This document shows positions 310-51,367 of a DNA stretch of 64,000 nt, one piece after another; position 1 is the stretch's first letter; every line of letters begins with the position of its first letter. The stretch lies in IMG/VR virus record IMGVR_UViG_3300024331_000207, positions 1 through 64,000 of that record. One strand, written 5' to 3'. The notes beneath the pieces were generated by a model. The model worked only from the letters and a program-made list of their open reading frames with translations, did no database searches and was not told where the DNA came from. Origin of the DNA: a virus. Taxonomy: Duplodnaviria > Caudoviricetes. The position numbers were made by a program, and so were the translations under genes.

Positions 310-344
310 GGTGTCCACTATACGTCACCGGCGGAAGGTGAGAC

Positions 345-2382: not shown

Positions 2383-4209
2383 ATGGGCCTGGTTGACAGG
2401 ATTAACGCCGAGGTCCGCGCAATCGGCGGCGTGCCCTGGCAGCCCTGGGCAAATCCCTACTGGCGGTTTAATATCGGCGGCCCGGTTCACCCGTCAAGGC
2501 AGGTTCAGGGAATTGACGCCTGCCTCGGGCTGGCGGCGGTCTATTCCTGCATCCGCTTTATCGCCGATGCTGTGGCGTCGCTTCCGATAAACGTTTACCG
2601 GACGGGCAGGGACGGCAATCCGATCCTTGTCCCGCACAGCCAGTTCCTGGACCAGCCGTCCACGCAGATGAATCCGTATGAATGGATTTTCGCGGGCACG
2701 GCATCGGCGCTGGCTTACGGTAATTCCATTGGCCTGATCGTCTCGCGCACGGGCGTCACCAACCCTGACGGCCTCGGCTACCCGCAGGACGTGGACTGGC
2801 TGCCCATGGACCGGATCTCGATCCAGGACGATGAGCACCAGCCGTGGAACTCCCGGCGCGCCAAGGTCTACTTCGACGGGCAGCTGCTGAACCGCGAGGA
2901 CATGCTGCACCTGCGGGCGTTCGTCCTGCCCGGGCGGCTGGAGGCGATCAGCCCGATCCTGGCGTTCGCGACGCTGATCCAGCAGGGCCTGGACTCGCTG
3001 AGGTACTCGGCCACCTGGTTCGAGAACGGCGGCTTCCCGCTCGGCACGTTCACCAACTCTGAAGAAGAGGTGGACGTCCAGAGCGCCAAGGAGATCCGGC
3101 AGAACCTGACCGACACCCTCCGGCAGCACCAGCCGCTGGTCTACGGGCGGAACTGGGAGTACAAGGCCGTCACGGTCCCCCCGAACGAGGCCGCGTTCAT
3201 CCAGGCGATGCAGCTGAACGCAACCCAGGTGGCGGCGATCTACGGGATGCCCCCGTCCAAGGTCGGCGGCACCCGCGGGGACAGCCTGACCTACGCGACG
3301 CAGGAGCAGGAAACGCTGTCGATCATCACCGACACGCTGCGCCCGTGGCTGCGCCGCTGGGAGGTGCTGCTTAGCTCGTGCCTGCCGGCCACCCAGTACG
3401 TGAGATTCGATACCGACGCCTTGCTGAAGACAGACCTCAAGACCCGGTACGAGATCTTCCAGACCCAGCGGAACATGGGCATCCGGACCACCGACGAGCT
3501 GCGCGCCTCCGATGACCTGCCACCGCTGCCGCGCGGGGCCGGCAAGGGCGTGATCCCGCTGTCGATGCTGGAGCGGATGGCGACGACCACGCGGACACTG
3601 CCCAAGGCCTACATGAACGAGGTCGTGCTGGAGCAGGCGCTGATCGCCAACCTGATGGTGAAGCTGCAGAAGGAGGGATACGTCCCGCCGGACGACATCC
3701 CGGACAATCAGGCCGTCACCGCGCCGGGCAGCAGCCCCAAGGGCGCCAGCGCGGGCAGCGACCCGGTGCCGAGGAACAACGACGGGGCGGGCGGCGAGCC
3801 GGGCAGCTACCCGATCGCGCTGACGCCGCCGGAGTACCTGGGCCGGCAGATCACCGCGATCCGCTCGGCCCCCTCGGGGTTCACCCCGCCGCACGTCCGG
3901 TGCAGCAACGTCGAACGGGCGCGGGCATGCGACTGGATCGCGATGGCGCACCGCGTCGGCTGCCTGGACGAGGAAGAGATGATCCGGCGCACCGAGTCGG
4001 CGAAGGCGGCCCTCAAGCGCGGCATGCTCGGCGAGCTGACCGGCGACCTGCCCCCGGAGGCCGAGCTGCGCGCCGAGACTCTGCGGCTGGCCGAGCCGGA
4101 CGAGCAGGTGCACGAGGGCCCGCGGTCGTTCGCGCCGCTGTCGCTAGCCCAGCTGCGCGAGCGGGCGCGCAGGTGGGAATCCGAACCGTCACCGAACGGC
4201 AGCCATTAA
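2383..4209 (+). CDS. HK97-family portal protein with C-terminal extension containing a DUF1707-like domain
   Basis: AVYSCIRFIADAVASLP, YGNSI, QVAAIYGMPP, DTLRPWLRRWE, FDTDALLKTD portal motifs; gene position. Confidence 0.92.
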   Translation: MGLVDRINAEVRAIGGVPWQPWANPYWRFNIGGPVHPSRQVQGIDACLGLAAVYSCIRFIADAVASLPINVYRTGRDGNPILVPHSQFLDQPSTQMNPYEWIFAGTASALAYGNSIGLIVSRTGVTNPDGLGYPQDVDWLPMDRISIQDDEHQPWNSRRAKVYFDGQLLNREDMLHLRAFVLPGRLEAISPILAFATLIQQGLDSLRYSATWFENGGFPLGTFTNSEEEVDVQSAKEIRQNLTDTLRQHQPLVYGRNWEYKAVTVPPNEAAFIQAMQLNATQVAAIYGMPPSKVGGTRGDSLTYATQEQETLSIITDTLRPWLRRWEVLLSSCLPATQYVRFDTDALLKTDLKTRYEIFQTQRNMGIRTTDELRASDDLPPLPRGAGKGVIPLSMLERMATTTRTLPKAYMNEVVLEQALIANLMVKLQKEGYVPPDDIPDNQAVTAPGSSPKGASAGSDPVPRNNDGAGGEPGSYPIALTPPEYLGRQITAIRSAPSGFTPPHVRCSNVERARACDWIAMAHRVGCLDEEEMIRRTESAKAALKRGMLGELTGDLPPEAELRAETLRLAEPDEQVHEGPRSFAPLSLAQLRERARRWESEPSPNGSH

Positions 4210-4242: not shown

Positions 4243-5268
4243 GTGACAGTGACCGAAACGAGGGACGCCATGAGCGCCGCCGCCATCAACGACCTCCCTG
4301 ACTCCGCGTTCGCCTATATCGAGCCGGGCGGCAAGAAGGACGGCGACGGGAAGACCATCCCGCGGAGCCTGCGGCACTTCCCGGTCCACGACGCCGCGCA
4401 CACGCGCAACGCGCTGTCGCGGGCCAGTCAGTCCCCGTTCGGCGAGAAGGCGATGCCGAAGATCCTGGCCGCCGCGCGCAAGCAGGGCGTCGAGGTCTCG
4501 CAGAACCACGCGATGACGGCGGACGAGGAGATGCGCGAGCTGCGCGTCACCAGCTGCTACCGGGACCTGAACACCCCGCTGGAGATGCGGGACATGGGCG
4601 ACGGGACCCACTGGATCGGCGGCTATGCCAGCGTCTTCATGCCGCGGCAGAGCCGGAACCTGGGCGGCTTCATCGAGCAGGTGTCCCAGACGGCGTTCGA
4701 GGAGTCGCGGGCCGGCGACTGGCACGACGTCGTGTGCCGCTTCAATCACGACAGCAACTACATCCTGGGCACGACGGCGGCCAAGACGCTGCAGATCGGC
4801 GGCGACCGGCTCGGCCTGCGCTACGACGTGAAGCCGCCGGAGTCCCGCAAGGACGTGGTGGAGCTGGTCGAGCGCGGCGACATCCGCTACTCTTCGTTCG
4901 CGTTCCGGTGCAACCCCGGCGGCGACGAGTGGTCGATGACCGAGCAGGGCTTCCCGCTGCGCACCCTGCACAGCGTCGAGCTGCTGGACGTCTCCCCGGT
5001 GCTGTCGCCCGGCTACCCGGACGCATCGGTCGCGGTCCGCGCCACCAACGCCGCGCTCCGCAGCTTCGCCGGATTTTTCCAGGCTGAGGCCGATGAGGTG
5101 CGCGCCATGGCGGAGGCCGGCGAGCTGCGCAAGTTTTTCACTCGCACGGTCGCCGGGCAGCCAGTTCACCGGCCTGCGCCGCGCACCCTGTTCGGCCCGT
5201 CCGCCGCAGCGACCATCCTGGCCCGCCGCCGCGACCCGAGCGACATTCAGGACGACGACCTGGCCTGA
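4243..5268 (+). CDS. HK97-family prohead protease with extra N-terminal domain
   Basis: GYASVF, LGGFIEQV, FNHD, RGDIRYSSFAF, LLDVSPVLSPGYP. Confidence 0.9.
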   Translation: MTVTETRDAMSAAAINDLPDSAFAYIEPGGKKDGDGKTIPRSLRHFPVHDAAHTRNALSRASQSPFGEKAMPKILAAARKQGVEVSQNHAMTADEEMRELRVTSCYRDLNTPLEMRDMGDGTHWIGGYASVFMPRQSRNLGGFIEQVSQTAFEESRAGDWHDVVCRFNHDSNYILGTTAAKTLQIGGDRLGLRYDVKPPESRKDVVELVERGDIRYSSFAFRCNPGGDEWSMTEQGFPLRTLHSVELLDVSPVLSPGYPDASVAVRATNAALRSFAGFFQAEADEVRAMAEAGELRKFFTRTVAGQPVHRPAPRTLFGPSAAATILARRRDPSDIQDDDLA

Positions 5269-5306: not shown

Positions 5307-5375
5307 GGTGGGGCTGGGGCCGGGGCGGGACGGAGTGGCTTGGGGTGGGAAGTCATATCCGGAAGACCCGGAGTC
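5307..5375 (-). repeat. solo GGNNN pentamer unit B with terminal hairpin
   Basis: 9 pentamers (5307-5351), GTC ATA TCCGG-aagac-CCGGA GTC; TAAATT on - at 5382-5387. Confidence 0.8.
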
Positions 5376-5482
5376 ACCCTTAATTTACACCAACTACGTG
5401 GGACTGGAAGCCCCAGTCCCCGCCTCCCGCCCTGCGGGCCGAGGCAAAAGAAAACAGCACAGTCCGCAGGAAAGGAAAAGCA

Positions 5483-6781
5483 ATGGCTAGTGAGGTTACT
5501 AAGAGGCTGCGCGACCGCCGCCTTAACGTATGGGAAGAGTGCAAGGCCCTGGCCGACGCGGCCGCCTCGGAAAACCGCGCTTTCTCTGCCGAAGAGCAGG
5601 GCAAGTGGGAAGTAATGAACGAGGAAATGGACACTCTCGACAAGCGCATTAAGAGCGCGCTTGACGCGGAGAAGCGGTCCGCCGAGGCGGACAAGATGTT
5701 CGACGAGATCACCTCCCGCGAGGCCCGCAAGGAGGCCGCCGGCCGCCCCGCCCCGGCCCGCCAGCAGGACTCCGAGCTGCGCGCGTTCCTGCGCGGCGAC
5801 CCCGGCGCTCCCCGCCGGATCGACATCGGCAAGTCCGACCGCTCCCGGATCAACTTCAACAACGGCCCGGTCGAACTTCGTAACATCACCGGTCCCGGCC
5901 CGACGCCGACCGGCGGTACCTCGGCGGGCGCCGACATCATCCCGATCGACTTCTATGACCAGTTGATCGCCCACCTCATCGAGGTCAGCGGCCTGCTCCA
6001 GACGGGCCCGACGGTCCTGAACACGGCCGGCGGCGAGACCCTGATGATCCCCAAGACCGCGGCGGGAGGTCACACCACGGCCGCGTCGGCCTCCCAGGGC
6101 GGCACGATCAACGAGGCGGACCCGACCTTCGGTCTCGCCACGCTGGGCGCCTGGAAGTACGGCGACCTCATCCAGGTAGCACGCGAACTCCTGGACGACA
6201 CGGGCGTCGACCTGGTCGGCTACCTGGCCATGTCCTGCGGCCGCGCGCTGGGCAACAAGTTCGGCGCGGACCTGGTGACCGGCACCGGCACCGGCCAGCC
6301 GAACGGCGTCCTGACCGGCGCCTCGGCCGGCATCACCGGCACCACCGGCAAGGCGGGCGCTCCGCAGTACGCCGACCTGGTGAACCTGGAGTACAGCGTG
6401 ATCGCGCCGTACAGGCAGTCGCGCTCGTGCTACTGGATGGCCGCGGACAAGACGATCGGCGGCTTCAGGCTCATCGTGGACGGCAACAGCCGCCCCATCT
6501 GGGAGCCCTCGATGGTCCTCGGCTCGCCCGACCTGCTCCTGGGCAAGCCGCTCGTCGCCGACCCGTACATGCCGGCCGTCGCGCTCTCGGGCGTCAAGCC
6601 CGTCCTGTTCGGCGACTTCTCGCAGTTCTTCGTGAGGATCGTCGGGCCGGTCCGGTTCGAGAGGTCCGACGACTTCCTCTTCGGGTCTGACTTGGTGGCC
6701 TTCCGGGCCATCATCAGGGGCGACGGGGTGCTCGTGGACCAGACGGGTGCCATCAAGTACCTCACTACGCCTACAACCTAG
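5483..6781 (+). CDS. major capsid protein (HK97 fold, N-terminal delta/scaffold region)
   Basis: coiled-coil N-terminus, RELLDD, GTGTGQPNG, LLGKPL, VLFGDFS, VAFRAIIRGDG; GGAAAGGA RBS. Confidence 0.93.
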   Translation: MASEVTKRLRDRRLNVWEECKALADAAASENRAFSAEEQGKWEVMNEEMDTLDKRIKSALDAEKRSAEADKMFDEITSREARKEAAGRPAPARQQDSELRAFLRGDPGAPRRIDIGKSDRSRINFNNGPVELRNITGPGPTPTGGTSAGADIIPIDFYDQLIAHLIEVSGLLQTGPTVLNTAGGETLMIPKTAAGGHTTAASASQGGTINEADPTFGLATLGAWKYGDLIQVARELLDDTGVDLVGYLAMSCGRALGNKFGADLVTGTGTGQPNGVLTGASAGITGTTGKAGAPQYADLVNLEYSVIAPYRQSRSCYWMAADKTIGGFRLIVDGNSRPIWEPSMVLGSPDLLLGKPLVADPYMPAVALSGVKPVLFGDFSQFFVRIVGPVRFERSDDFLFGSDLVAFRAIIRGDGVLVDQTGAIKYLTTPTT

Positions 6782-23364: not shown

Positions 23365-23763
23365 GTGGCACGCATCCACGGACGGAACGGAATTGTTTAC
23401 TTCGGTCAGGCCTGCGGTGCAGCCGCCTCTCCGGTGGCCTACCTCAGTGACTGGAACGTGAATTTTACCGTAGACACGGTTGACGTCACCAGCATGGGCG
23501 ACGCCAACAAGATCTACGTGGCGGGCCTGCCGGACGCCAGCGGCGACTTCGCCGGCTTCTACGACGACGCGTCGGTGCAGTTCTACACCGCCGCCACCGA
23601 CGGCGTGCCGCGCGCGTTCTACCTGTACCCGAACACGCTGAACGCCACCCAGTACTGGTACGGCAACATCCTCGCGGACTTCTCGATCTCCGGCGGCATC
23701 GCCGCCGCGGTGTCCATCAAGTCCACCTGGAAGGCTGCGACGAAGATAACCAAGTTTGGTTAA
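23365..23763 (+). CDS. major tail (tube) protein
   Basis: RIHGRNG, DTVDVTSMGD...YVAGLPDASGDF; AGGAGG RBS. Confidence 0.8.
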   Translation: MARIHGRNGIVYFGQACGAAASPVAYLSDWNVNFTVDTVDVTSMGDANKIYVAGLPDASGDFAGFYDDASVQFYTAATDGVPRAFYLYPNTLNATQYWYGNILADFSISGGIAAAVSIKSTWKAATKITKFG

Positions 23764-23810: not shown

Positions 23811-24497
23811 ATGGAGAGACGATGCTCGGTCGAGAGCTGCGGCGAAACTCACTACGCGCAGGGGTACTGCAGTCGGCATTACCAGCGCTGGCGCAGGTAC
23901 GGTGATCCGCTAGGCGGCAGTCAGCTAGGACGAGGCGAGGCACGCCCGGCGCAATGCCTCGTGGAGGGGTGCGAGTCACCGTCGTTCATCCGCGGCTGGT
24001 GCAATTCGCACTATCATCGCTGGCAGCGGTACGGTGATCCGCTCGCCGGAGGGCCGTGGCGCCAGGCGCGCGCAGCGGAGTGCTCGATAGAGGGCTGCCA
24101 CCTTGCGGTCCAGGCAAAGGGCTGGTGCACTATGCACTACACCCGCTGGCGCGTCCACGGCGACCCCCTGTTCCGCAAGACGCGCAAGGACTCGGCGGGG
24201 TGGCGCGGCCTTAATAGTGACGGCTACGTCATTATTCGCAAGAAAGGGCAGACGGTTCTGGAGCACCGCAAGGTGATGGCCGAAAAGCTCGGCCGTGATC
24301 TGTATCCGTTCGAGAACGTGCACCACAAGAACGGTGTCAAGACAGACAACCGCCCGGAGAACCTGGAGATCTGGGCAAGGGCCCAGCCCTGCGGCCAGCG
24401 TCCCGAGGACATGGCCGCCTGGATGGCCGAGCACTACCCCGCCGAGACGCGCGCAGCCCTCGGCTGTACCTGCGAACCCCTGGAGCCGCAACCATGA
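23811..24497 (+). CDS. HNH homing endonuclease
   Basis: three CxxxGC...GxCxxHY-RW-R-GDP repeats; EHRKVM, VHHKNGVKTDNRPENL. Confidence 0.88.
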   Translation: MERRCSVESCGETHYAQGYCSRHYQRWRRYGDPLGGSQLGRGEARPAQCLVEGCESPSFIRGWCNSHYHRWQRYGDPLAGGPWRQARAAECSIEGCHLAVQAKGWCTMHYTRWRVHGDPLFRKTRKDSAGWRGLNSDGYVIIRKKGQTVLEHRKVMAEKLGRDLYPFENVHHKNGVKTDNRPENLEIWARAQPCGQRPEDMAAWMAEHYPAETRAALGCTCEPLEPQP

Positions 24498-25408
24498 GGG
24501 GCATCGACTATGCCTGGGCCAATCCGAAGCCGTCGCCGGCTCAGCTGAAGGCCGATGGCGTCGCGTTCGTGATGCGCTACATCTCCGCCGACCCGTCCAA
24601 GGACCTGACGCCCGCCGAGCGCGATGCGCTGCTGGCGGCGGGCATCAGCATCGGGCTGGTATGGGAGGTGGACGGGCACATGAACGGCGGCGCCGCGGCC
24701 GGGGAGGCCGCGGCGGTCGCCTCGGACGCGTTCTGCATCGCGATGGGGATGCCGGGCATCCCGGTGTACTTCGCGTGCGACATGGACCCGCGCGGATTCA
24801 GCGGCAGCGACTGGAACGCGATCGACGGGTACATGGGCGCCGTCGCGTCAGTGCTGGGCCTGCCCCGGACGGGCGGCTACGGCGCCCACGACTTCATCGG
24901 GCACTGCTTCAACGCCGGCCGGATGACCTACGGCTGGCAGACCTACGCCTGGTCCTCGGGGATGTGGGACAGCCGCGCCCAGCTCCGCCAGATCCTCAAC
25001 GGCGTGACACTGGTCGGCCTGCCGAATCTGTCCGCCGACCTCGACGAGAACATGGCCGCCGATTACGGCCAGTGGCCGCGGCCGTCCGGGCCGCAGCCTG
25101 TCCCCCCGTACCAGCCGCAATGGACGGAGTTCGACATGAGCAAGATCGCGGTGCTGAGCATCGGCGCTGCCGACACCCCTGGCGGCGGCTTCTGGTCGGT
25201 GCACCGGCTGCAGGTACTGCTGAACATGACCGGCGACCTGAACGGCGTCACTGCCGCGAGGTCGTCGGTGATGGGCGCGCCGGACGGCTCGTTCGGGCCG
25301 AAGACGCAGGCGGCGGTCCGGGGCGTGCAGCAGCACTACGGCATTGCCGCGGACGGCATCGCCGGCGCGCAGACCTGGTCGGTGCTGCTGACCGGCTCGG
25401 CTTCCTAA
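24494..25408 (+). CDS. endolysin: DUF1906/GH25-like hydrolase plus peptidoglycan-binding domain
   Basis: GIDY, FVMRY, PVYFACD, WQTYAWS; DGSFGPKTQAAVRGVQ...DGIAGAQTW. Confidence 0.85.
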   Translation: MRGIDYAWANPKPSPAQLKADGVAFVMRYISADPSKDLTPAERDALLAAGISIGLVWEVDGHMNGGAAAGEAAAVASDAFCIAMGMPGIPVYFACDMDPRGFSGSDWNAIDGYMGAVASVLGLPRTGGYGAHDFIGHCFNAGRMTYGWQTYAWSSGMWDSRAQLRQILNGVTLVGLPNLSADLDENMAADYGQWPRPSGPQPVPPYQPQWTEFDMSKIAVLSIGAADTPGGGFWSVHRLQVLLNMTGDLNGVTAARSSVMGAPDGSFGPKTQAAVRGVQQHYGIAADGIAGAQTWSVLLTGSAS

Positions 25409-25467: not shown

Positions 25468-26121
25468 ATGGTACCCGAGGAAGCGCTGCGCCGCCTGCAG
25501 GCGGTCACCGAGGGCACGGACCCGGAGCCGTCGGCGGAGTTCCTGGGGCAGCCGTACCTGGTGCGGACCGACGGACGGCTGGCGGCGCTGCTGGCGTACG
25601 CCTCGACGGGGCAGCCGACGGCTTCCGAGCGCGTGCGGCTGGAGTCCCTGGGCGACCTGGGCAGCGGCGGCACGGTGAGCGAGCAGGCCATGCTGGCGGC
25701 CGCCTACGACCTGCTGGAGCAGTGCCTGGACGACTTCGCCGGCTTCGCCAGTGCGGCGTTCGACGGCAAGGCGAGCGCTGCGCAGGTCCGCGATGCGGTC
25801 ATGCGGGTGATCGAGGTCGTGACGGCCCGCCCGCCGATGGCGGCGCTGCGGCTGCTCGGCTACGTGACGGCCAACCTGGCGGAGTTCGACGGGGGGCTGC
25901 TGATGGCGGGCGGCCCGGGGCTGGCGGCGATGTCGGCCCGGGAGGCCTGCAACGCCGCCTTCGCCCGCGCCCTGGAAACCATCGAGCCCGACCGCCAGGC
26001 GGAGTGGAAAGAGGATCTTTACCTCGATTACTCCCCCGAGGACCAGGCGCTGGAGATGGTCCGGAAGATGCAGGCAGACCGGAAGGCGCGGGAGGAGGCC
26101 GGCGATGACAGTGCAGGTTGA
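25468..26121 (+). CDS. probable tail assembly chaperone-like protein
   Basis: position; helical acidic protein; C-terminal part of track ORF 24295-26121. Confidence 0.45.
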   Translation: MVPEEALRRLQAVTEGTDPEPSAEFLGQPYLVRTDGRLAALLAYASTGQPTASERVRLESLGDLGSGGTVSEQAMLAAAYDLLEQCLDDFAGFASAAFDGKASAAQVRDAVMRVIEVVTARPPMAALRLLGYVTANLAEFDGGLLMAGGPGLAAMSAREACNAAFARALETIEPDRQAEWKEDLYLDYSPEDQALEMVRKMQADRKAREEAGDDSAG

Positions 26122-26470
26122 CTGGGACATCCCGGTGACTGACGAGTACCTGCGCCAGGTCTCGCTCGCCGTGGTTTATGAGCTGGCCCCGCGGGTCGAC
26201 GCGGTGGCCACCGCGCTGGCGCCGGTGCTGACCCGGCACACCCCGGTGCCGAGGTACGTCAAGCGCCGGAGCCACGGGCACGGCGGCCACCTGAAGGCGT
26301 CAGTGCACTGGGCGTGGAGCGAGGACTCCGACGGCATTTACGCCGACATCCTCTCGTTGTGGTACGGCCGCTTCCTGGACCCGAAGGCCGAGCAATTGCA
26401 CTATAAACGTCCCTTCCTCCCGACAGCGTTGTACGCCGTTTGCCAGGGACGGGTCCTGTATTTGGGCTAG
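26105..26470 (+). CDS. HK97 gp10-like neck/tail protein
   Basis: GHLKASV, YGRFL, RPFLPTAL. Confidence 0.6.
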   Translation: MTVQVDWDIPVTDEYLRQVSLAVVYELAPRVDAVATALAPVLTRHTPVPRYVKRRSHGHGGHLKASVHWAWSEDSDGIYADILSLWYGRFLDPKAEQLHYKRPFLPTALYAVCQGRVLYLG

Positions 26471-26548
26471 GGCAGGCTCGTCGGCTTGGGCAGGGTGGGG
26501 AGGGCTGGGTTCGGAGCGGTTTGTCGTAGCCGTCCTATTACCGGCGTC
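26465..26548 (-). repeat. GGNNN pentamer array C (3+8 pentamers, GTC-delimited) with terminal hairpin
   Basis: pentamers 26465-26479 and 26483-26522, then GTC GTA GCCG-tcctattac-CGGC GTC; TACTGT on - at 26555-26560. Confidence 0.85.
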
Positions 26549-26588
26549 AGTTCAACAGTATCCATTCACCGCCATAGGAGCCGCAACC

Positions 26589-26966
26589 ATGGCTGACCGC
26601 GCGCCCGCACGCCGGGCCCCATCTCGTTCCGCGCGACCCCGCGCCGCCGCTAAGGCGAGTTCGGGGTCATTTTCGTATTTGGGTGAAACTTACAGGCTCG
26701 ACTCGAAATTGGGCATCTGGCCCATGATTCAGTTCGCCCGTGCCGCGGAGGCCGGGTGGCGCAGCAATGACCTGCGCGGGATGGCCGCGATCCACGCGTT
26801 CCTGCAGGACGTGATGCTGCCCGAGGACTGGCCGAAGTTCCAGGACGACATGATCAACAAGAAGATGCAGGACATCGGCGGCCTGCTGGAGGTCGTGCGC
26901 AAGGCGGTCGATGAGTCGCTCAGCGCGCTGGCTGAGGCGAGCGGGAACGGCGACTCGCCGGAGTAG
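26589..26966 (+). CDS. tail assembly chaperone
   Basis: directly before tape measure; AGGAG RBS. Confidence 0.55.
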   Translation: MADRAPARRAPSRSARPRAAAKASSGSFSYLGETYRLDSKLGIWPMIQFARAAEAGWRSNDLRGMAAIHAFLQDVMLPEDWPKFQDDMINKKMQDIGGLLEVVRKAVDESLSALAEASGNGDSPE

Positions 26967-26983
26967 CGGGACGGAGGTGGCTG

Positions 26984-29900
26984 GTGGCGATACCAGGGTC
27001 GGCGGGCAGCTTTGCCCTCGCCGAGGCCTTCGTGCGCATCAGACCCGACACTGACGGGTTCCGCCGCGACGCCGACGCCCAGCTGAAGCGGGAGATGGCC
27101 GGGGACAAGGTCACCGTCCCGGTGCACGCGGAGGTCGACATCAGCGACCTGCGCCGGCAGCTGGGCACGATCACCGTGACCGAGGCGGTCACCGCGCCGG
27201 ACCCGGGCAAGATCACCGCGGCGCTGCAGATCCTCAAGCAGAAAATGTCTGCGCTGGGCATCGCCGACATTGCCGACGTCAACGTCGACCCGGGGAAGAT
27301 CGCGCAGAGCCTGCAGCGGATGAAGATACTGCTCCAGCGCGTGCCCGGCGGCAGCCTCCCCGGCCTGGCCGACATGATGGACATCAACATCCCGGTGTCG
27401 ACCATCACCACGCAGCTGGAGCGGATTAAGAACATCCTGAACAAGGCCAGCGGCCAGAGCGCGGTCGCCGACCTGCTTGACGTCAACCTGAACACCGCCC
27501 AGGTGCAGGCGGGCATCAACAAGATCCAGAAGGCGTTCGCCGCCCTCGCCCCGGGCGAGACCATCCCGCTGGGGCTGAGCGACCCCGGGGTGCTGAACTC
27601 GATCAACGCGGTCCGCCAGGCGATCGGGTCGCTGGAGGGGTCGCAGGGCAACGTGGTCCTGCCCACGGCGGTCTTCCCGCCGGGCGAGCTGAACCAGCTG
27701 ACACTGTTCGGCGATGAGATCCAGAAGCTGAAGACAGAGAGCGGCACCGGCTGGAACTGGGCCGCGACGGTCACCGGCTTCCAGAACACCGGCCAGGCCG
27801 CCTCGAATGCCGCGACGATCCTGGAAGAGTGGCTGGCGGCCAACGAGAACGCCACTACGGGCCTGAAGGACCTGGACGCTGAGCTGAAGGAGAAGCCGGG
27901 CGACCTGGGGGCGGCCGGCGGGGCCGCCAAGGCCACCGGCGACAAGTTCCTCCTGCTCGGCAGGACGATCGTGGCGAATGTCGGCTGGTGGACGCTGCTC
28001 CACGCCGGGATCGACCTGGCCGCGGAGTCGCTGATCGCGGTGGTCGGCGCCGCCCTGGCGGCCGCTACCGGCATCGCCGCGCTGGTCCCGGTGATGACCG
28101 ACATCTATAACCACATCCATGCGGTCAACCAGGTGAACTCGGCGCTGGGTGACCAGATCCCGGTGCTGGGCGCCAATTTCCGCAATTTCGCCGAGTCGCT
28201 GGGCACCGCCTCGGCCGGGGCGGAGCTGTACGGCCAGGCCGTCACTGCCATTTCCGGCAAGACGGGCGTGCTGGCCCAGAGCGCCGCCGCGGTGATCACC
28301 GTGTTCGAGGACTGGGCCGCGAAGATAGCGATCTGGCTCCAGGCGCAGAATAACTTCGGCACCGTGCTGAACCAGGGCCGCGGCTACCTGGTGCAGTTCG
28401 GCCAGATCCTGGCCAACCTGTTCATCGCGATCGACAACCTGATCAAGGCCGACCCCGGCGTCGTGCACTTCTTCCTCGATTTCGTCAACGGGCTGGCGAC
28501 ACTGTTCCGGATTGCCACCTCGATCCCGCAGCCGGTGCTGCAGATCGCCCTCGGCCTGCACGCCGTCTACCTGTACGGCAAGCTGGCGGGCGGCGTGCTG
28601 AGCGCTATCGGCTTCGTCATGGGAGGGCCGCTCGGGAAGGCCATCGGCACGTTCGGAAACCTTCTCCGTGACCTCGCGAGGAACCCCGCGCTGCTGCTGA
28701 TCGGCGCCACGGCGCTGGGGATCGCGAACAACTGGAACACCGCCACCCCGCAGATCACCGGGGACATTAACAAGATCAACACGGCGCTGTCGCAGATGAC
28801 CGCCTCGCAGGCCATCGCCACCATCCCCCGGTTCATCGGGCAGCTGAGCGCGGCGCTGAACAACGTGAGCACGGCGCAGGCGGAGAAGGGGTTCGAGTCC
28901 TTCCGCGGCACCCTGCAGGCGGCCGGCGACAACATCCAGGTGATCGGCCACGACCTGTCGGACTCGGTCAACATTCACAAGACCTTCGAGCAGCAGGCGG
29001 TCGCTGCCTGGCATGCGGTCTACCAGGCCACCTTCGGCGGGCTGAACACCACCGCGCAGGCCACCCAGGAGGTCGGCAACACCACCGCGCGGGTGCACGC
29101 CGAGATCGCCAAGCTGCTCACTGACGAGGCCGGACTGCTGAAGGTGGTCGGCGACCTGAGCGCCGGCACCGTGACGGCCAGCCACGCCACCTATACCTAC
29201 GCGCAGTCGCTGGCGCTGATGGACCTGGCCGGGGTGAAGGCGGGCGACAGCCAGCAGCTGGCCGAGCAGAAGGTCCGCGGCCTGCTGCAGGGGTATGAGG
29301 CACTGAGCGTCCAGGGCCCGATCCTGGCCGCGTCGGTCAACGCGGTGACGCTCGCCACCGAGCAGCAGCAGAGCCAGATCACCGCCCTCAACCAGGGCTG
29401 GGACGCGTTCTTCAACCTGGTCTCCGGCGGCGTCTCCGACATGTACGCCTTCGAGGCCAACCTGAAGACCCTGGACACCCAGGCGGGGGTCTCGACGAAG
29501 AACCTGGGCCTGCTGAGCCAGGGCGCGCTCACCACCGGGCAGGACTTCATCCAGTCCGCGCAGGGCGCTAACCAGATGGCCGACCAGATCACGTCGATGG
29601 TCTCGGCGGCGGGGCTCGGCGCGCACGGCACGGACCTGATCACCGCGTCCGTCAAGGACTACGTGGCGCTGCTGCTGCCGGCCGCCAAGGGCAGCGCCGA
29701 CTTCACCAGCATCCTGTACTCGATGGCACAGCGCGGCGGCTACACCGGCGCGAACAGCTTCCAGGAGCTGAGCAAGTGGGTGGCGACCGCTTCCGGCACG
29801 GTGAAGGCGATGGGCGCGTCCGGCGGCCCGGCCCAGCAGCTGCAGGGCACCATGACCGCGCTGACCGGCGACGTGGGCAACCTGACCACCGACGTGCAGA

Positions 29901-32248
29901 ACCTGGCCACCGCGCTGCATGACAACCTGACCAACGCCATGGCGACGGCCGCGTTCGCCGCCTCCGGCGGGCAGAAGGCGTTCACTGATTTCGCCACCGC
30001 GATCGACACGACAGGCAAGAACTCCGTCGCGGACATCCAGACCGGCACGAAGCTGGTGCAGAGCCTGATCACGCAGACGGGCAGCGCGCAGCAGGCGCAC
30101 GACATGTTCATCCTGTTCGCCAAGCAGGCGCTGCACCTGACCACGACCGAGGCGAACACGCTGTGGACCGAGATCGACGCCCAGCTGATCCCCGCGGTCG
30201 CCAAGAGCGGCACCACTGCCGCGGCGTCCTCCCAGCAGATCAGCGACACCTTCCTGAAGACCCTGACCGCGATCCACGGCCTGTCCCCGCAGCTGGATTC
30301 CGACGTGAGCGCCTTCACCACGGCGGTGCAGAAGACCGGCGACACCTCAACCCGGACCCAGGGCGCGCGCGCCCAGCTGATCAAGGACCTGGAGAAGGCC
30401 GGCTACAGCGCGCAGGCGGCGGCGGGCCTGGTGGACGGCCTGCAGGCGCAGATCAACAACCTGCACGGCAAGAACGTCAACTTCGTGATGACCGGCCAGG
30501 GCGCGGGGCAGCTGTACTTCAACGCGACCACGGGCGTCGGCGGCAGCATCAGCGGCGGCCTGAAGTTCCTGGCCGGCGGCGGCCACGTCGCCGGGCCGGG
30601 CGGGCCGACGAGCGACGTCATCCCGATCATGGCGTCGTCGGGCGAGTACGTGATCAACGCGAAGTCCGCGAAGAAGCTCGGGCTGGCGCAGCTGGACGCG
30701 CTGAACAAGTACGCCGGCGGCGGCCTGGTGGGCGGGAACTTCGCCGCGTTCGAGGCGGGGGCCGGCGCGGGCCTGAACAGGGCGTCGAACTTCATCGCCG
30801 GCAACGAGCTTGCCTGGGGCGAGGACGTGGCCCGCAACTGGGCGGCCAAGGTGATCGCCGCCGTCAAGGCGAAGCTCGCCGCCGCGGCGGCCAAGGTGGC
30901 GGCCGGCACCCCGGTGGCCTGGAGCAAGGTCGCCGGGGTGACCCAGTGGGAGGGCGTCGCGCTGCAGGCGCTGTCACTGCTCGGGCTGCCCGCCAGCGAC
31001 CTGCCCACCGTAATGGCACAGATTCTCACAGAATCTGGCGGAAATCCGAACGCAATCAACCTGACGGACATCAACGCCCAGCAGGGCGATCCGTCACGCG
31101 GGTTGCTCCAGGTCATCGGTACCACTTTCGCCGCGTACAGGAACGCTGGCCTCAGTAGCAACATCTACGACCCGCTGGCCAACATCTACGCCGGCCTGAA
31201 CTACGCCATCCACCGCTACGGCAACCCCGGCTGGCTCGGCGTGCTCGGCCACGGACACGGCTACGGCTACGGCGGCCAGGTGATGGACTCCGGCGGCTGG
31301 CTGCCGCCGGGCCGCTCGCTGGTGTGGAACCGCACCGGCGGCTACGAGCACCTGTCCCGGGATGCCGGCAGCGAGGCCGCCGGCGGCTGGCACGCCAGCC
31401 TCGACGACGTGTGCACGAAGCTCGATGCGCTGATCGGCGTCACCGGCCAGCAGGGGCGCAGCTTCGCCGGCGCGCTGAACGGCACCGCCGCCTCGGCGGG
31501 CACCCGCGGCTCTTACAGCACCCGCCGTTTATTACTCACCAGTAACCGGGAGAAGGTGACATCCAGTGGCCACTTCTGCCTGGGACAGCCTCGTCATCGG
31601 CGAGGCCATCGAGCTGATGGGGCCCCCCGGCGGCATCCCCTCGGTCAACCCGATGTGCCCCGGCGCCGTCTTCCGCATCCAGCCGCCGTTCTCCCTCGAC
31701 GCCCCCCAGCCGACGACCGATTTCGTCGCCACCTTGATCCTCGACGGCGAGCGGCCGTTCGGCGACCGCGCGTCGGACCGCACGATCACCCTGAATGTGC
31801 TGATCCTCGCGCCGGACTACAAGACCCTGGCCGGCGCGCGCGAGCTGCTGCTGAAGACCATCGACGACCCGCACTGGCCGCTGACCTGGACCCGGGCATC
31901 GGGCGCGGACCCGCAGACGCTGCCGATGGTACTGGACTGCTTCCGCGCCCAGCCGTCGGTGCTGCCGCTGGGCGGCCCGGAAGATTACCGGGTGCAGGGC
32001 CGGGCTTCCTACGAGGCCCTGGTCACGGTCAAGTTCGAGGCGCTGCCCTACGGCCGCTCCAGCACCCAGCAGCAGATCGCGTTCGCCGCACCCATCGCGA
32101 CGATCAACGGCCCCGGCACGCCGCCCGCGCCCGTGGTGCTGGACGCCTTCAGCACCATCAACAGCCCGCAGTGCTCGCAGTCAGCCAAGTGTATCGTCGG
32201 CCCGAACACCTGCTACTGGGACCCTGCAGTCCCCCCGTTCAGCCGTGA
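26984..32248 (+). CDS. tape measure protein with C-terminal lytic transglycosylase; native-looking sequence ends ~31528
   Basis: LAEAFVRIRPDTDGF N-terminus, long Ala-rich helix, ESGGNPNAIN...RGLLQ...IYDPLANIYAGLNYA. Confidence 0.9.
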   Translation: MAIPGSAGSFALAEAFVRIRPDTDGFRRDADAQLKREMAGDKVTVPVHAEVDISDLRRQLGTITVTEAVTAPDPGKITAALQILKQKMSALGIADIADVNVDPGKIAQSLQRMKILLQRVPGGSLPGLADMMDINIPVSTITTQLERIKNILNKASGQSAVADLLDVNLNTAQVQAGINKIQKAFAALAPGETIPLGLSDPGVLNSINAVRQAIGSLEGSQGNVVLPTAVFPPGELNQLTLFGDEIQKLKTESGTGWNWAATVTGFQNTGQAASNAATILEEWLAANENATTGLKDLDAELKEKPGDLGAAGGAAKATGDKFLLLGRTIVANVGWWTLLHAGIDLAAESLIAVVGAALAAATGIAALVPVMTDIYNHIHAVNQVNSALGDQIPVLGANFRNFAESLGTASAGAELYGQAVTAISGKTGVLAQSAAAVITVFEDWAAKIAIWLQAQNNFGTVLNQGRGYLVQFGQILANLFIAIDNLIKADPGVVHFFLDFVNGLATLFRIATSIPQPVLQIALGLHAVYLYGKLAGGVLSAIGFVMGGPLGKAIGTFGNLLRDLARNPALLLIGATALGIANNWNTATPQITGDINKINTALSQMTASQAIATIPRFIGQLSAALNNVSTAQAEKGFESFRGTLQAAGDNIQVIGHDLSDSVNIHKTFEQQAVAAWHAVYQATFGGLNTTAQATQEVGNTTARVHAEIAKLLTDEAGLLKVVGDLSAGTVTASHATYTYAQSLALMDLAGVKAGDSQQLAEQKVRGLLQGYEALSVQGPILAASVNAVTLATEQQQSQITALNQGWDAFFNLVSGGVSDMYAFEANLKTLDTQAGVSTKNLGLLSQGALTTGQDFIQSAQGANQMADQITSMVSAAGLGAHGTDLITASVKDYVALLLPAAKGSADFTSILYSMAQRGGYTGANSFQELSKWVATASGTVKAMGASGGPAQQLQGTMTALTGDVGNLTTDVQNLATALHDNLTNAMATAAFAASGGQKAFTDFATAIDTTGKNSVADIQTGTKLVQSLITQTGSAQQAHDMFILFAKQALHLTTTEANTLWTEIDAQLIPAVAKSGTTAAASSQQISDTFLKTLTAIHGLSPQLDSDVSAFTTAVQKTGDTSTRTQGARAQLIKDLEKAGYSAQAAAGLVDGLQAQINNLHGKNVNFVMTGQGAGQLYFNATTGVGGSISGGLKFLAGGGHVAGPGGPTSDVIPIMASSGEYVINAKSAKKLGLAQLDALNKYAGGGLVGGNFAAFEAGAGAGLNRASNFIAGNELAWGEDVARNWAAKVIAAVKAKLAAAAAKVAAGTPVAWSKVAGVTQWEGVALQALSLLGLPASDLPTVMAQILTESGGNPNAINLTDINAQQGDPSRGLLQVIGTTFAAYRNAGLSSNIYDPLANIYAGLNYAIHRYGNPGWLGVLGHGHGYGYGGQVMDSGGWLPPGRSLVWNRTGGYEHLSRDAGSEAAGGWHASLDDVCTKLDALIGVTGQQGRSFAGALNGTAASAGTRGSYSTRRLLLTSNREKVTSSGHFCLGQPRHRRGHRADGAPRRHPLGQPDVPRRRLPHPAAVLPRRPPADDRFRRHLDPRRRAAVRRPRVGPHDHPECADPRAGLQDPGRRARAAAEDHRRPALAADLDPGIGRGPADAADGTGLLPRPAVGAAAGRPGRLPGAGPGFLRGPGHGQVRGAALRPLQHPAADRVRRTHRDDQRPRHAARARGAGRLQHHQQPAVLAVSQVYRRPEHLLLGPCSPPVQP

Positions 32249-42228: not shown

Positions 42229-42522
42229 TCAGGCAGCCTGGCCGTCACGCTCGCGGCGCGCCTCGGCGGCCTGGCGCCGCGCAGTCTCCTGCTGGTTCTC
42301 GCGCTTGCGCACGGGAGCCTCGCCGCGCGTCCAGCCCATCTCGGCGCGGATGCGGTCCGCCCAGCGGCGGGCGTCGGCCTTCGGCGGCCCCGTGGGCCGC
42401 TTGTACTGCGGGGGATGGGGCGGCCAGGGGCCGGGCTCGGTGACCTCCTGGCGGTCGCAGTGGCGCGCGATATGGCCCAGCCCACCGCAGGCGAAGCAGC
42501 GAAACGGCTCGTCGTCATACAT
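42229..42522 (-). CDS. CCHC zinc-knuckle protein
   Basis: CFACGGLGHIARHC fits CX2CX4HX4C; GGAGG RBS. Confidence 0.7.
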   Translation of the reverse strand: MYDDEPFRCFACGGLGHIARHCDRQEVTEPGPWPPHPPQYKRPTGPPKADARRWADRIRAEMGWTRGEAPVRKRENQQETARRQAAEARRERDGQAA

Positions 42523-42614: not shown

Positions 42615-42731
42615 GGTCAGGGGCGGTCGGGGAAGGCACGTCGGCGCGGGCAGGGTGGGGCCGGGAAGGCTCGGGCCGGGCAGGGGCGGGTAGTCGGGAC
42701 GGCGTGGTTTGGCTAGCCATCTACAGGCGTC
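42615..42731 (-). repeat. GGNNN pentamer array D (5+10+4 pentamers, GTC-delimited) with terminal hairpin
   Basis: 42615-42639, 42643-42692, 42696-42715, then GCC-atctaca-GGC GTC; TACACT on - at 42738-42743. Confidence 0.85.
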
Positions 42732-42769
42732 GCAGCCAGTGTAGCGCTGAGTGCACCAGGGGAATTAGG

Positions 42770-42802
42770 CGGGGGCCCGCCCCTATCCGTGGACGGGCCC
42801 CC
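42770..42802 (-). terminator. hairpin after the tRNA-like cluster
   Basis: GGGGGCCCG...CGGGCCCCC. Confidence 0.55.
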
Positions 42803-42873
42803 TGGTGTCAGCGGGAGTTGAACCCGCAACCTACGGCTTAACCGGCCGTCGCGCTGCCCAATTGCGCTATGAC
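42803..42873 (-). tRNA. degenerate tRNA-like gene (GTT anticodon, 4-bp acceptor stem, ACCA end)
   Basis: GTCA TA GCGC AATTGGGCA GCGC G ACGGC CGGTTAA GCCGT AGGTT GCGGG TTCAACT CCCGC TGAC ACCA. Confidence 0.6.
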
Positions 42874-42881
42874 GATTGGTT

Positions 42882-43186: not shown

Positions 43187-43954
43187 TCAGGGGCGCAGCC
43201 ACCAGTCGAACAGCGTCCGGCCCTCGCTGTAATCCTCCACCACCGCCGTGTTGGCCTCCTCGCGGGCGTACTTTACCGCCTCGCGCAGCTGCGCCAGCCG
43301 GTCCAGCAGCTGCCGCTTGCGCCGGGCGGTGACCGCGCCGGAGTACTTCACCGTGGTCCAGTAGCCGACCACCTCCTGGCGCTGCCGCACCTCCACCCTC
43401 GGCTCCACGAGCAGGCCCTCGATCACCTGGGCCTTGACCAGCTCGTGATTGAACAGGACGGTGTCCTCGCTGGTCGTCTCGGTGCCCGGGGTGCGGTACT
43501 GGCCCTCCTCGGTGTCGGAGTCGCTCCAGCTCTCGGTCGCGTCGAGCACCGGCAGCCGCAGCGCGAAGGAGTACAGCTCCGCCAGCCGCCCCTCCAGGAA
43601 GATCAGGTGATCGGTCGGCACCTGCGTCAGCAGCGTCTCGCCGTCCACCGTCACGTCGCCGCGGGCGCTCATCTTCGCCTCATCCAGCGTCCGGGTCACG
43701 TCCAGCTGACGGGTGAGCAGCTGGCGGACGTCCTCCAGCACGCCGGCCACGGTCACCTGTACGGGCTTGTGCTGCGCGGGCCGCTGCAGCGGGGCCGGCT
43801 GGCCGGGCCGCGGCTCGGCGCGGGGCTGGTAGGTCTTGCTGATGCCCGTGGTCAGCTCGGGCGAGGAGACGGCCTGGCCGAGCACGTCCATCCGGGCGTT
43901 AACGTCCGCCTTGACGCCGCCGACGACGGCAAGAATCTGGGAGATGCGAGTCAT
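43187..43954 (-). CDS. conserved hypothetical coiled-coil protein, leaderless
   Basis: GISKTYQP, VP..HLIFLE, VGYWTTVKYSGA, AVKYAREEAN; GCGCTACATT-N6-ATG. Confidence 0.8.
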   Translation of the reverse strand: MTRISQILAVVGGVKADVNARMDVLGQAVSSPELTTGISKTYQPRAEPRPGQPAPLQRPAQHKPVQVTVAGVLEDVRQLLTRQLDVTRTLDEAKMSARGDVTVDGETLLTQVPTDHLIFLEGRLAELYSFALRLPVLDATESWSDSDTEEGQYRTPGTETTSEDTVLFNHELVKAQVIEGLLVEPRVEVRQRQEVVGYWTTVKYSGAVTARRKRQLLDRLAQLREAVKYAREEANTAVVEDYSEGRTLFDWWLRP

Positions 43955-44036
43955 TGTCACAATGTAGCGCCCATGTGTGGTGCAAGCGCAACCGGTTTTG
44001 CGTTATCCCGCGGGAGGGCGGGCTAGGCTCACAGCC

Positions 44037-49450: not shown

Positions 49451-50440
49451 TCATGACAACAGGGTAATGGTGACGGACGGTTTACCGTACTTAATAGGCG
49501 GCTCCGCGCCGGCCCGCGCGTAATCCTCTTCCACCTGCTTGCGGTCCAGCGAGCTGCGCCCCCTGGTCATCGTGATCCGCGCGGTCATCACGCCGGCCGT
49601 GACCTCCTGGCTCTCGCCCGGCCTGGTGACGGTGCGCAGCGCGTCCAGCGCGCCCTTCGCCTCCTCCTCCAGCGCCTCCGCGGCGGCCTTCGCCTCGCGG
49701 GCCGCGGCGAGCTGCTTCAGCCACCGCTCCGCGTCGGGGTCCTCCAAGTACAACACCGTCCGCGGGTCGCGCTCGGGCACGCCCCGCCCCCAGCACTCGG
49801 AAAAGAAAGGGCAGTTGCGGCAGTACGCGGAGTCGGGGCTGTAGTCCCGCGGCAGCGACTGCAGCGGCCCGCGCTTGACAGCCTCGACCCAGGCCAGGGC
49901 ATCCCGGACGTGCTGGAGCTTGAAGTCGTCCTCCCAGACGACCTCCTCGCCGTTCGACCGATCCAGGTAATTCAGCCGGATTCGCCTGACCTGGTGACCG
50001 CGGACAGTGAGCGCGGCGGCGTACAGGGAGCATTGCCAGACGTGCCGCGCGGGCGGTCCCTCGCGGCGAACCTTGTCGAGCTGGACGGCATAAGCAGTGG
50101 TCTTGAGGTCGACCACCAGTCCATCGTGGAACAGGTCCGGGTGACCGAGGAGGCCGGCGAAGGAAACCGCATCTTCGATGATCGCACTGTCGCCCAGGAC
50201 GGCACGCGCTGCATCAGCGAACACCAGGTGGATGGCCGTACCCATGACTGCGGGCGTGCTGCTGAGCTGTGCCGCGGGGAAGCCGGCAAGGCGGTAGCCG
50301 GCCTGACGGCGGCAACCGCCGATTTCACTCATGCCGAGTTCGCGCTGCTGGCTCCTGGGACGCGATGCGTCCCAGGAGCCTAGCAATTGAGTAGCGGTAG
50401 GTGTATCCATGAAGCACATCATGGACCGGGGGTCTGACAT
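49451..50440 (-). CDS. Cas4/RecB-like PD-(D/E)XK exonuclease
   Basis: SEIGGCRR, GTAIH, GHPD...DLKT, QCSLY, CRNCPF...C (four Cys); start 50440 or 50410. Confidence 0.85.
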   Translation of the reverse strand: MSDPRSMMCFMDTPTATQLLGSWDASRPRSQQRELGMSEIGGCRRQAGYRLAGFPAAQLSSTPAVMGTAIHLVFADAARAVLGDSAIIEDAVSFAGLLGHPDLFHDGLVVDLKTTAYAVQLDKVRREGPPARHVWQCSLYAAALTVRGHQVRRIRLNYLDRSNGEEVVWEDDFKLQHVRDALAWVEAVKRGPLQSLPRDYSPDSAYCRNCPFFSECWGRGVPERDPRTVLYLEDPDAERWLKQLAAAREAKAAAEALEEEAKGALDALRTVTRPGESQEVTAGVMTARITMTRGRSSLDRKQVEEDYARAGAEPPIKYGKPSVTITLLS

Positions 50441-50870
50441 TCCAGTCCCGCCACACCGCGCCACGCCCTGCGGAGCCGCTGCCTTGCCCGCCAGGCCGAA
50501 CCTATCCTGCCGCCCCTGCCGATGCGCCCCTTCCCTTGCCGACGCCATGCGCGCCTGTCCGCTGCTGCCGATGCTGGCCTGTCCGAACGACCCCTGTGCC
50601 TGCCGCGCCGGACCTATCCGCCCCTGCCAAGCCACGCCGCGCCCAGCCATGCCGGGCCGGTCCCGTCCTCACCTGACCACGCCTGCCAGGCCTTGCCTTG
50701 CCGAACCCCGCCCCTGCAGGCCTTGCCGCGCCTGGCCTCACCTGACCTTGCCTGCCGATCCGCGCCTAGCCCGTCCCTGCCGTGCCAAGCCCTTCCCAGC
50801 CGAGCCGTGCCTAGCCAACCCTGCCATGCCGAGCCTTGCCTGGCCGGACCCTGCCTATCCGTGTCCATCC
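50441..50870 (-). ncRNA. GGNNN pentamer array, GGCA-delimited; putative guide-RNA array
   Basis: - strand units of 7, 13, 13, 11 and 4 pentamers each closed by GGCA, then a degenerate tail; co-oriented with the RAMP-like gene. Confidence 0.85.
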
Positions 50871-50887
50871 CTATTCGTGAGCCGGGC

Positions 50888-51367
50888 TCACTCGCCAGAT
50901 GCCGCTGCGTCCTGTTCACCCATCATGCTTCGCAGCGCGGCCCAGAATTCGGGCAGCGCCTGGTACCGTGCCCGGAGTGCGGCTATCTCTCTCGCCATCC
51001 GGCTGAGGAGGATGCGCCGCTCCAGGTCGGTTATCGATTCGGCCGCGACGTACGTGCCTGGCGGCACCGTCCGGCCGACGTTGCGGCCCGCCTGGTACTC
51101 GCGCAGCAGGTACTGGCGCACCTCGCCGTCGGCAGCCTCCTCCAGGACCTTGAGCCGGCAGCTGCGGATGAGCGCCGTCGCCTGCGCGAACCTGTACCGT
51201 TCGGCAGCCTCGGCGTCGTTCCAGGTGAACCGGTCATGCAACGGGCTCCCGTCCGGCCGGGCCGCCTCAAGAACCGCGAACGCTGACACATTACCGCCCT
51301 CGTCCGCAAGCTGCCGGATCTCCCGGCGGACGGGATCGTCAGGCTGGATGACCCTGATCACGGTCAC
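50888..51367 (-). CDS. partner protein of the RAMP-like gene
   Basis: GTGA overlap with upstream stop; VLEAAR..SPLHDRFTWND.EAAERYR..QA..LIR. Confidence 0.8.
   Translation of the reverse strand: MTVIRVIQPDDPVRREIRQLADEGGNVSAFAVLEAARPDGSPLHDRFTWNDAEAAERYRFAQATALIRSCRLKVLEEAADGEVRQYLLREYQAGRNVGRTVPPGTYVAAESITDLERRILLSRMAREIAALRARYQALPEFWAALRSMMGEQDAAASGE

Follow-up and report, generated by a model that had tools for sequence, protein, structure and literature searches.

The stretch 26465-26560 of a soil phage genome is probably a self-contained guide-RNA cassette of the VIPR type, which would silence the gene directly upstream of it in related competing phages during co-infection; this reading is built on sequence, and from it we infer the expression of the cassette, its RNA strand, its effector and its rival target. 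Mechanistically, the cassette, composed of a short stub, an 8-pentamer guide and a hairpin handle, would have been inserted between two tail-module genes that abut in relatives. A Vipr-type RAMP protein would assemble into a polymer on the constant GG of the pentamers and expose the outer two variable bases for pairing with DNA, in which every third base of the target would be passed over. Read in this manner, the guide spells the first two positions of eight codons that belong to a conserved motif of the upstream gene. The outcome would be a silencing of that gene in closely related phages that compete within the same cell. The phage's own copy differs from the guide at two code positions (Leu TTG for CTN, Tyr TAT for TGN), and the placement beside the gene would keep the guide and the less-matched allele linked.

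VIPR systems are CRISPR-like, RNA-guided DNA silencers of phages (10.64898/2026.04.26.720920, 10.64898/2026.04.26.720927). Their vrRNAs consist of GG-phased pentamers that are followed by an invariant structured 3' tail (10.64898/2026.04.26.720920), with 9-16 pentamers that each contain a fixed GGY and two variable bases, and one Vipr protomer is bound per repeat. The variable bases read the DNA by base pairing while every third target base is skipped, which corresponds to codon positions 1 and 2, and the pocket of the SUSP1 Vipr protein excludes purines at repeat position 3. The RNAs are about 100 nt long, G-rich, and co-purify with Vipr (10.64898/2026.04.26.720920, 10.64898/2026.04.26.720927). 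As natural targets, the authors of the VIPR studies accept matches of 80% or more, and the published guide sets are devoid of self-targets at this level (10.64898/2026.04.26.720920, 10.64898/2026.10.15.759431). Solo guides far from vipr genes have been published for SUSP1-like phages and F5 satellites (10.64898/2026.10.15.759431). Passages on non-canonical repeats name the classes NNNGG, YNNNG and NNNNG (10.64898/2026.04.26.720920), and a passage of a further study gives 21 clusters of VIPR repeat classes (10.64898/2026.10.21.760802).

Genomic setting of the cassette

The window, i.e. the whole stretch of DNA analysed here, comprises the first 64 kb (64,000 nucleotides) of a linear soil virus record of IMG/VR that has 97,652 bases, is about 84% complete and has a GC content of about 69%. 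Head and tail genes occupy the + strand of the first 42 kb (Table 1). The cassette is situated in the tail module, inside a gap of 118 bases between a 121-aa gene, for which Pfam and PHROG searches gave no match, and a 125-aa gene. The latter is followed by a 1754-aa ORF that, judged by its size and position, is taken as the putative tape-measure gene.

Table 1. Coordinates of the cassette, its near-target, the sister arrays and the genes referred to in the text (positions within the window).
Feature	Position	Strand	Remarks
Array A	1-322	+	at least 7 GTC-separated units, handle 284-309, TANNNT box 317-322 (opposite strand)
Best match of the handle-proximal unit of array A (1-282)	561-584		14/16, HTH-domain gene
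Portal gene	2383-4209	+
Prohead protease gene	4243-5268	+
Best match of unit 5307-5351	5137-5163		16/18, protease gene
Solo 9-pentamer unit, variant handle with 5-bp stem	5307-5387	+	between protease and capsid genes
Major capsid gene	5483-6781	+
Major tail gene	23365-23763	+
Endolysin gene	24494-25408	+	Rv2525c-like glycoside hydrolase and peptidoglycan-binding domain
121-aa tail-module gene	26105-26470	+	carries the near-target; family with conserved WYGRF-DPK motif
Near-cognate site	26384-26407	-	codons 94-101 of the 121-aa gene, 99 nt upstream of the array
Cassette: 3-pentamer unit (GGNNN x3)	26465-26479	+	overlaps the stop codon 26468-26470 of the upstream gene
Cassette: GTC punctuation between units	26480-26482	+
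Cassette: main guide unit	26483-26522	+	8 GGNNN pentamers, 16 code bases by the N4N5 rule
Cassette: conserved handle	26523-26548	+	GTC-GTA, 4-bp stem 26529-26532/26542-26545, 9-nt loop, closing GTC
Cassette: TANNNT box	26555-26560	-	candidate -10 element of a leftward C-rich transcript, 6 nt before the handle-ending GAC
125-aa gene	26589-26966	+	3' of the cassette
1754-aa ORF	26984-32248	+	after the 125-aa gene
Best match of unit 42643-42692	42466-42495		15/20, zinc-knuckle gene
Array of 5+10+4 pentamers, shortened handle	42615-42743	+
Cas4-like PD-(D/E)XK nuclease gene	49451-50440	-	adjoins the canonical array
Canonical GGY/NN array	50441-50871	-	430 bases, downstream of vipr and the 188-aa ORF
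188-aa partner ORF	50888-51454	-	downstream of vipr
Vipr-family RAMP protein, 253 aa	51364-52125	-	by profile and fold

Pentamer grammar and handle

The preliminary description had claimed 3+8 pentamers, and the stretch 26465-26522 indeed parses as three GGNNN pentamers, a GTC and eight further GGNNN pentamers. The spacing of the GG runs in the cassette is 5,5,8,5,5,4,5,5,6,5, and the lag-5 autocorrelation of the G-rich tract (0.54 versus 0.37 expected) demonstrates a true 5-base period. In-phase runs of eight GG pentamers are found at six places only in the 97.6-kb contig, four of which are on the + strand (1-282, 5307-5351, 26483-26522 and 42643-42692), and the other two are parts of one long - strand array at 50.6-50.9 kb. 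The cassette hence shows the tandem 5-nt repeats with fixed GG, in at least four units, by which a vrRNA is recognised. It does not follow the GGY rule, as position 3 of its pentamers is taken by 6 pyrimidines and 5 purines (n=11), and over 508 pentamers of the same type G is the commonest base at this position. The main unit has 8 pentamers, or 11 if the stub across the GTC is included, at a published range of 9-16. Inspection of the sequence revealed no collinear match of the stub beside the target of the main unit.

The same grammar recurs elsewhere in the genome. Units of this GTC type contain 6-10 pentamers, are separated by GTC and are unconstrained at position 3, and the GTC separator is also present in the arrays 1-282 and 42615-42710 as well as in a second soil phage of 90.8 kb (IMGVR_UViG_3300037258_000549, here G011), which uses the same grammar. 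The structural proteins of G011 are 47-76% identical to those of the present phage, and its arrays occupy other places in the genome.

The pentamers end in a 27-base pattern, of which 23 bases are specified. The window has exactly two copies of it, both on the + strand (283-309 and 26522-26548), and there was no further copy in the whole 97.6-kb contig and none in 100 shuffles. As had been claimed, the motif is thus common to two places that are 26 kb apart: all 23 specified bases (23/23) are identical, and the two copies differ solely in the 4-base gap. In terms of vrRNA architecture, the 26-base handle of the cassette is the same as the copy 284-309 and constitutes an invariant structured extension 3' of the repeats. 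The pentamers were said to be unrelated, which agrees with a hand comparison in which the 8-pentamer unit and the final unit of array A had about 5 of 24 variable bases in common.

The hairpin postulated for this motif held up in part. Its sequence is shared and its stem covaries, but there is just a 4-bp stem with a 9-nt loop, and the folding energy is no better than that of shuffles (z 0.13 and -0.10), so that the hairpin is supported by compensatory changes in other copies and not by folding energy. The handle forms no pseudoknot. Degenerate handles end the arrays at 5352-5387 and 42711-42743, and the handle therefore exists in more than two places; nine handles are known, namely five full-pattern copies across two phages and four weaker ones. 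Among these nine, Watson-Crick compensation is seen at two stem positions (outer G-C to T-A, inner G-C to A-T), and there are no G-U pairs in the stems, which therefore give no clue to the strand. A covariance model made from four handles gives matches at E 7e-11, and four weaker handles were found with it in G011. The ends of the four + strand arrays have a common layout, consisting of GTC, RTA, a 3-5-bp stem-loop, GTC, 6-7 bases and ANNNTA. The opposite strand reads TANNNT in 9/9 handles, 6-7 nt before the GAC at which conservation stops, with the four weaker G011 handles being a biased sample for ANNNTA because the covariance model included the ANNNTA columns. TANNNT is what we take to be the actinobacterial -10 consensus. 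A consensus scan detected no -35 element for this box, a scan of 26000-27000 for sigma-70 and terminator consensus sequences returned nothing, and an Rfam search returned tRNA only. The exact handle had no match in IMG/VR. A looser pattern of handle plus pentamers gave 10 viral and 116 genomic matches, and the 90 matches that were inspected were all due to chance with the exception of one phage, which is G011.

The putative guide nearly matches the adjacent gene

For the target search, the 8-pentamer unit was turned into patterns for 12 combinations of register and skip length, which were compared with the contig and with the loci of 20 relatives. Such a gapped search had been proposed in the preliminary description, and under the published rule (N4N5, 1-nt skip) its best match in the contig and the relatives' loci together was one of 14/16 (87.5%) at 26384-26407, in the adjacent gene. 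The site is antisense and in frame, and the skipped bases are wobble positions. The published rule is the sole combination that places the best contig-wide match in the adjacent gene; all other codes (0, 2 or 3 skips, other registers, all three variable bases) have their best match outside the neighbour and were discarded. No order-shuffled guide scored 14 contig-wide (0/100), and 3/5000 did so within 600 nt of the array in a local permutation. As the best contig match under the published rule is a wobble-aligned site in the adjacent gene, the payload is guide-like. At 87.5%, the site exceeds the at least 80% of NN positions that natural targets share with their guides under a 1-nt skip with wobble positions skipped, but it is situated in the phage's own genome, and by the published 80% threshold this amounts to self-targeting. 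The former assumption of a guide RNA thus agrees with what the sequence offers, i.e. a handle with an unrelated payload as in VIPR architecture, an encoded Vipr gene, and a payload that nearly matches the gene next to it.

The other three arrays with this grammar behave similarly (Table 1). All four handle-proximal matches are in the adjacent gene, antisense and wobble-aligned, and if the best match fell randomly, the chance of such an adjacency would be roughly estimated at about 1% per array. When full triplets are considered, 28/35 amino acids are the same in the four guides and in the genes beside them, and the purine/pyrimidine class of the wobble base is retained in 27/35 codons. The guide of the cassette spells KAEQLHCK, where the gene reads KAEQLHYK. 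This codon imprint is limited to the handle-proximal units. Whole arrays as codon copies were considered and rejected, since stop codons are not depleted in the 508 pentamers (12 seen versus 12.6 expected), and units distant from the handle in array A and G011 have no above-chance matches. In G011, the neighbour rule could not be replicated with the handle-proximal units, which are too short or degenerate, and in comparisons of the guides of the present phage with G011, and in the reverse comparisons, the short units remained at chance level. The target pattern has 14 exact matches in IMG/VR, all of them out of context and thus attributable to chance. The 10-pentamer unit 42643-42692 spells a more canonical zinc-knuckle (C-G-E-F-G-H-C) than the adjacent gene has at 42466-42495 (C-G-G-L-G-H-I), as if the unit had been copied from another allele.

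Own allele, rival alleles and relatives

No other motif of the gene family is as conserved as the one that contains the near-target. Its Leu mismatch is synonymous, and all relatives with Leu at this site (11/11) use CTN. At the position of the mismatching Tyr, Cys or Trp was found in no homologue. The best score among relatives at this site is 11/16, which was obtained with distant relatives, and no better-matching allele was found. The neighbour proteins of the closest relatives are 61-89% identical, and a P0166/P0167-type relative, whose protein is like that of the present phage at the site, would reach 15/16 if its Leu codon were CTN. A strain of about 95% similarity keeps both TTG and TAT, and in contigs from four variant DNA runs the array stretch is without coverage. 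The mismatching Leu and Tyr codons, the CTN of the relatives and the position of the site in a conserved motif lead us to favour a targeting of close rivals with partial self-protection. In the segment 26390-26407, the codons CAA, TTG, TAT and AAA are A/T-ending or rare, at a third-position GC of 88% in this gene; such a codon choice is consistent with a recoding away from the guide.

The insert is absent in 20/20 relatives, whose 125-aa proteins are at most 56% identical and which have neither array nor handle at this locus. In 13/20 of them, a homologue of the 121-aa gene is directly 5' of the 125-aa gene, at most about 25 nt away, and in the present phage the ribosome-binding region of the 125-aa gene is still recognisable 3' of the cassette. 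As relatives are without the insert and the arrays of G011 are elsewhere, the cassettes turn over.

Vipr protein and candidate effectors

The genome encodes a protein, here termed Vipr1 (51364-52125), that belongs to a family of 2398 cluster representatives. A profile of 63 homologues has a single match in the PDB, the SUSP1 Vipr protein (36pp, E 1.1e-11), and the AlphaFold model (pLDDT 89.4) has Csm3/Cas7 chains as top Foldseek matches (probability 1.00). By profile and modelled fold, the protein is thus related to SUSP1 Vipr and to Cas7-type RAMPs and counts as a member of the Vipr family. The canonical array downstream of it has GGY in 46/56 units, is G-rich in the sense of vipr, and differs from the GTC-type arrays in punctuation and end. 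Seven relatives of this Vipr from IMG/VR were inspected; six of them have G-rich pentamer arrays 3' of the gene and in its orientation, and in L044 no such array was detected. As Vipr1 has a canonical array of its own, with GGY, another punctuation and another end, it may not be the effector of the cassette. A second Vipr was not found, as a comparison of the Vipr profile with all ORFs of the contig returned only Vipr1, and none was found in five relatives that share the 125-aa gene. A 187-aa ORF (contig 74883-75446) was considered as effector and dismissed, with a poor model (pLDDT 49) and no lead to RAMPs.

In G011 (L176:1463-2980), two ORFs of 236 and 240 aa are located between GTC-type arrays at 35-1300 and 3000-3900, and both flanking arrays are G-rich when read in the direction of the ORFs. 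For the 240-aa protein, the only relatives are viral hypothetical proteins, and its C-terminal motif resembles the glycine loop of Vipr. Its profile comparison with Vipr was not significant, and a protein-atlas lead to RAMPs was weak (0.75). The two ORFs are a candidate effector pair for GTC-type arrays. Homologues of them were not found on the present contig; by analogy to G011, effector genes might be situated just upstream of array A, beyond the contig start.

Which strand serves as guide?

For the G-rich strand speaks that the canonical array is G-rich in the vipr sense and that the G011 arrays are G-rich on the ORF strand, and the experimentally characterised vrRNAs are all G-rich with a 3' tail (10.64898/2026.04.26.720920, 10.64898/2026.04.26.720927, 10.64898/2026.10.15.759431). 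For the C-rich strand speaks that the TANNNT box is on the opposite strand in all handles, and that - strand genes lie on either side of the cassette at 42.7 kb. The position of the box suggests a leftward C-rich RNA with a 5' handle. In a more far-reaching form of this idea, which we regard as rather unlikely, the GTC-type cassettes would be a second, mirror-image VIPR-like class with their own -10 box, a C-rich RNA and a 5' hairpin handle. They would be selfish modules of a linked guide and resistant allele, each beside a structural gene whose rival alleles are silenced, or cut with the help of the Cas4-like nuclease (49451-50440), and they would spread by recombination like free-standing homing endonucleases. 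If so, the full-codon imprint in the handle-proximal unit would reflect how guides are made.

Alternative explanations

What else could account for a near-cognate site right beside its guide? The guide complex could bind this site in the phage's own DNA, and the cassette would then be self-regulatory, throttling or timing the downstream tail genes, i.e. the 125-aa gene and the putative tape-measure gene. The best and only near-match is indeed in cis and with 14/16 is above the 80% threshold of the VIPR authors, the other three cassettes match their own neighbours too, and the strain of about 95% similarity has preserved both mismatching codons. However, the Leu codon has changed synonymously away from the guide where 11/11 Leu relatives keep CTN, so that the mismatches look like escape and not like a maintained pairing. 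In addition, published guides avoid self-matches (10.64898/2026.04.26.720920, 10.64898/2026.10.15.759431), and a silencing of protease, tail and HTH genes within the late operon would be costly to the phage. We therefore consider self-regulation unlikely, and a silencing of rival alleles remains the preferred reading.

Two further explanations would do without any guide function. The cassette could be a decayed remnant, in which a fragment of a larger array recombined into the tail operon, and its just 8+3 pentamers, the matchless stub and a contig on which no cognate effector was identified would fit to this. A remnant is nevertheless improbable, as the handle agrees in 23/23 positions with a copy at a distance of 26 kb that has an unrelated payload, the phasing of the eight pentamers is perfect, and a random remnant would not match the adjacent gene so specifically (3/5000). 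Slightly less probable still is a promoter or operator function, in which a protein would bind the 27-base motif to serve the downstream + strand genes and the G-rich tract would be a structural element such as a G-quadruplex or bent DNA. It is true that an ATG with a ribosome-binding site follows the exact copies after 35 and 40 nt, and that the tract holds canonical G-quadruplex motifs, but the copy 42711-42743 points towards a tRNA gene of the other strand, the copy 5352-5387 is about 100 nt away from the capsid start, no sigma-70-type site was found on the + strand, and the conserved box reads TANNNT on the opposite strand only. The wobble-aligned matches to neighbours and the covariation of the stem would also be left unexplained by such an element.

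Comparison with known systems

Type II VIPR systems, as known from Escherichia phage SUSP1 and a Pseudomonas fulva prophage, share with the cassette the five-base GG repeats, a structured cap at the 3' end (of the G-rich strand), the encoding by a phage, a Vipr homologue in the genome and a wobble-aligned coding match with a 1-nt skip. In contrast to these systems, position 3 is not restricted to pyrimidines in the cassette, GTC stands between the units, a 4-bp hairpin takes the place of the pseudoknot tail, there are 8 pentamers instead of 9-16, a -10-like box on the opposite strand suggests that the C-rich strand may be the RNA, and the nearest match is in the own genome. The host range probably comprises high-GC soil bacteria, in contrast to the Enterobacteria and Pseudomonas from which the studied systems come.

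The published solo vrRNAs have in common with the cassette that they stand alone far from vipr, which in our case is 24.8 kb away, and that they have a wobble-aligned coding target; the self-match may also be below the presumed match to a rival (10.64898/2026.10.15.759431). They are, however, found on satellites or where VIPR-null phages once had their VIPR locus, have the canonical GGY and a pseudoknot tail, and are directed against vipr genes, satellites, REP decoys or further vrRNAs (10.64898/2026.10.15.759431), whereas the cassette resides in the structural operon of a VIPR-positive phage, uses a second grammar and matches the adjoining structural gene. As to the non-canonical VIPR classes, period-5 arrays and a relaxed fixed trinucleotide are shared, and among the classes named in the passages on them, NNNGG would fit the cassette. 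In these passages, the classes are described beside a Vipr-like gene of their own, unlike the cassette, and GTC punctuation, the handle and the adjacency of a near-target do not appear there (10.64898/2026.04.26.720920, 10.64898/2026.10.21.760802). The cassette is thus best filed within VIPR, as a solo guide with non-canonical grammar, and the near-match to the gene alongside is its unreported feature.

Archaeal viruses carry mini-CRISPR arrays with one or two guides against genes of close relatives, which have been read as a means of interviral exclusion. The cassette is likewise a virus-carried mini-array with one or two guides. The mini-CRISPR arrays have CRISPR repeats and contiguous spacers and use host Cas proteins, whereas the code of the cassette is non-contiguous and pentameric, and the system is phage-encoded.

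VIPR was first described in 2026, and nearly all experiments were done with enterobacterial and Pseudomonas phages and the canonical GGY (10.64898/2026.04.26.720920, 10.64898/2026.04.26.720927). The cassette would show that one phage can have, besides a canonical VIPR locus, arrays with another repeat grammar and handle, and that single-guide cassettes can be scattered across a structural operon. The near-matched gene beside each cassette suggests a linkage rule for a guide and its less-matched allele; if this rule holds, targets of phage-phage exclusion would be predictable from sequence alone, and there might be a hint at the origin of guides. The -10 box on the opposite strand turns the question of which strand guides into a concrete one.

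Further features of the contig

The contig starts inside array A, and that of G011 likewise starts inside a long pentamer array; both assemblies may have broken within a pentamer array. About 16% of the genome is absent from the contig, including any large terminase gene upstream of the portal gene. The tail module also includes the endolysin gene, which comes after the major tail gene and before the 1754-aa ORF. A strong nested hairpin (42753-42876) is beside a - strand tRNA-Asn gene, and this region is adjoined by a gene for a DUF7873 protein (43187-43960). The early region contains a HNH/NUMOD4 homing-endonuclease-like gene and a Ku-like gene (63370-63933; contig 76443-77270). At the right end of the contig, beyond the window, a short repeat of about 20 bases is present in several copies (contig 97250-97652), which may mark an origin or packaging region.
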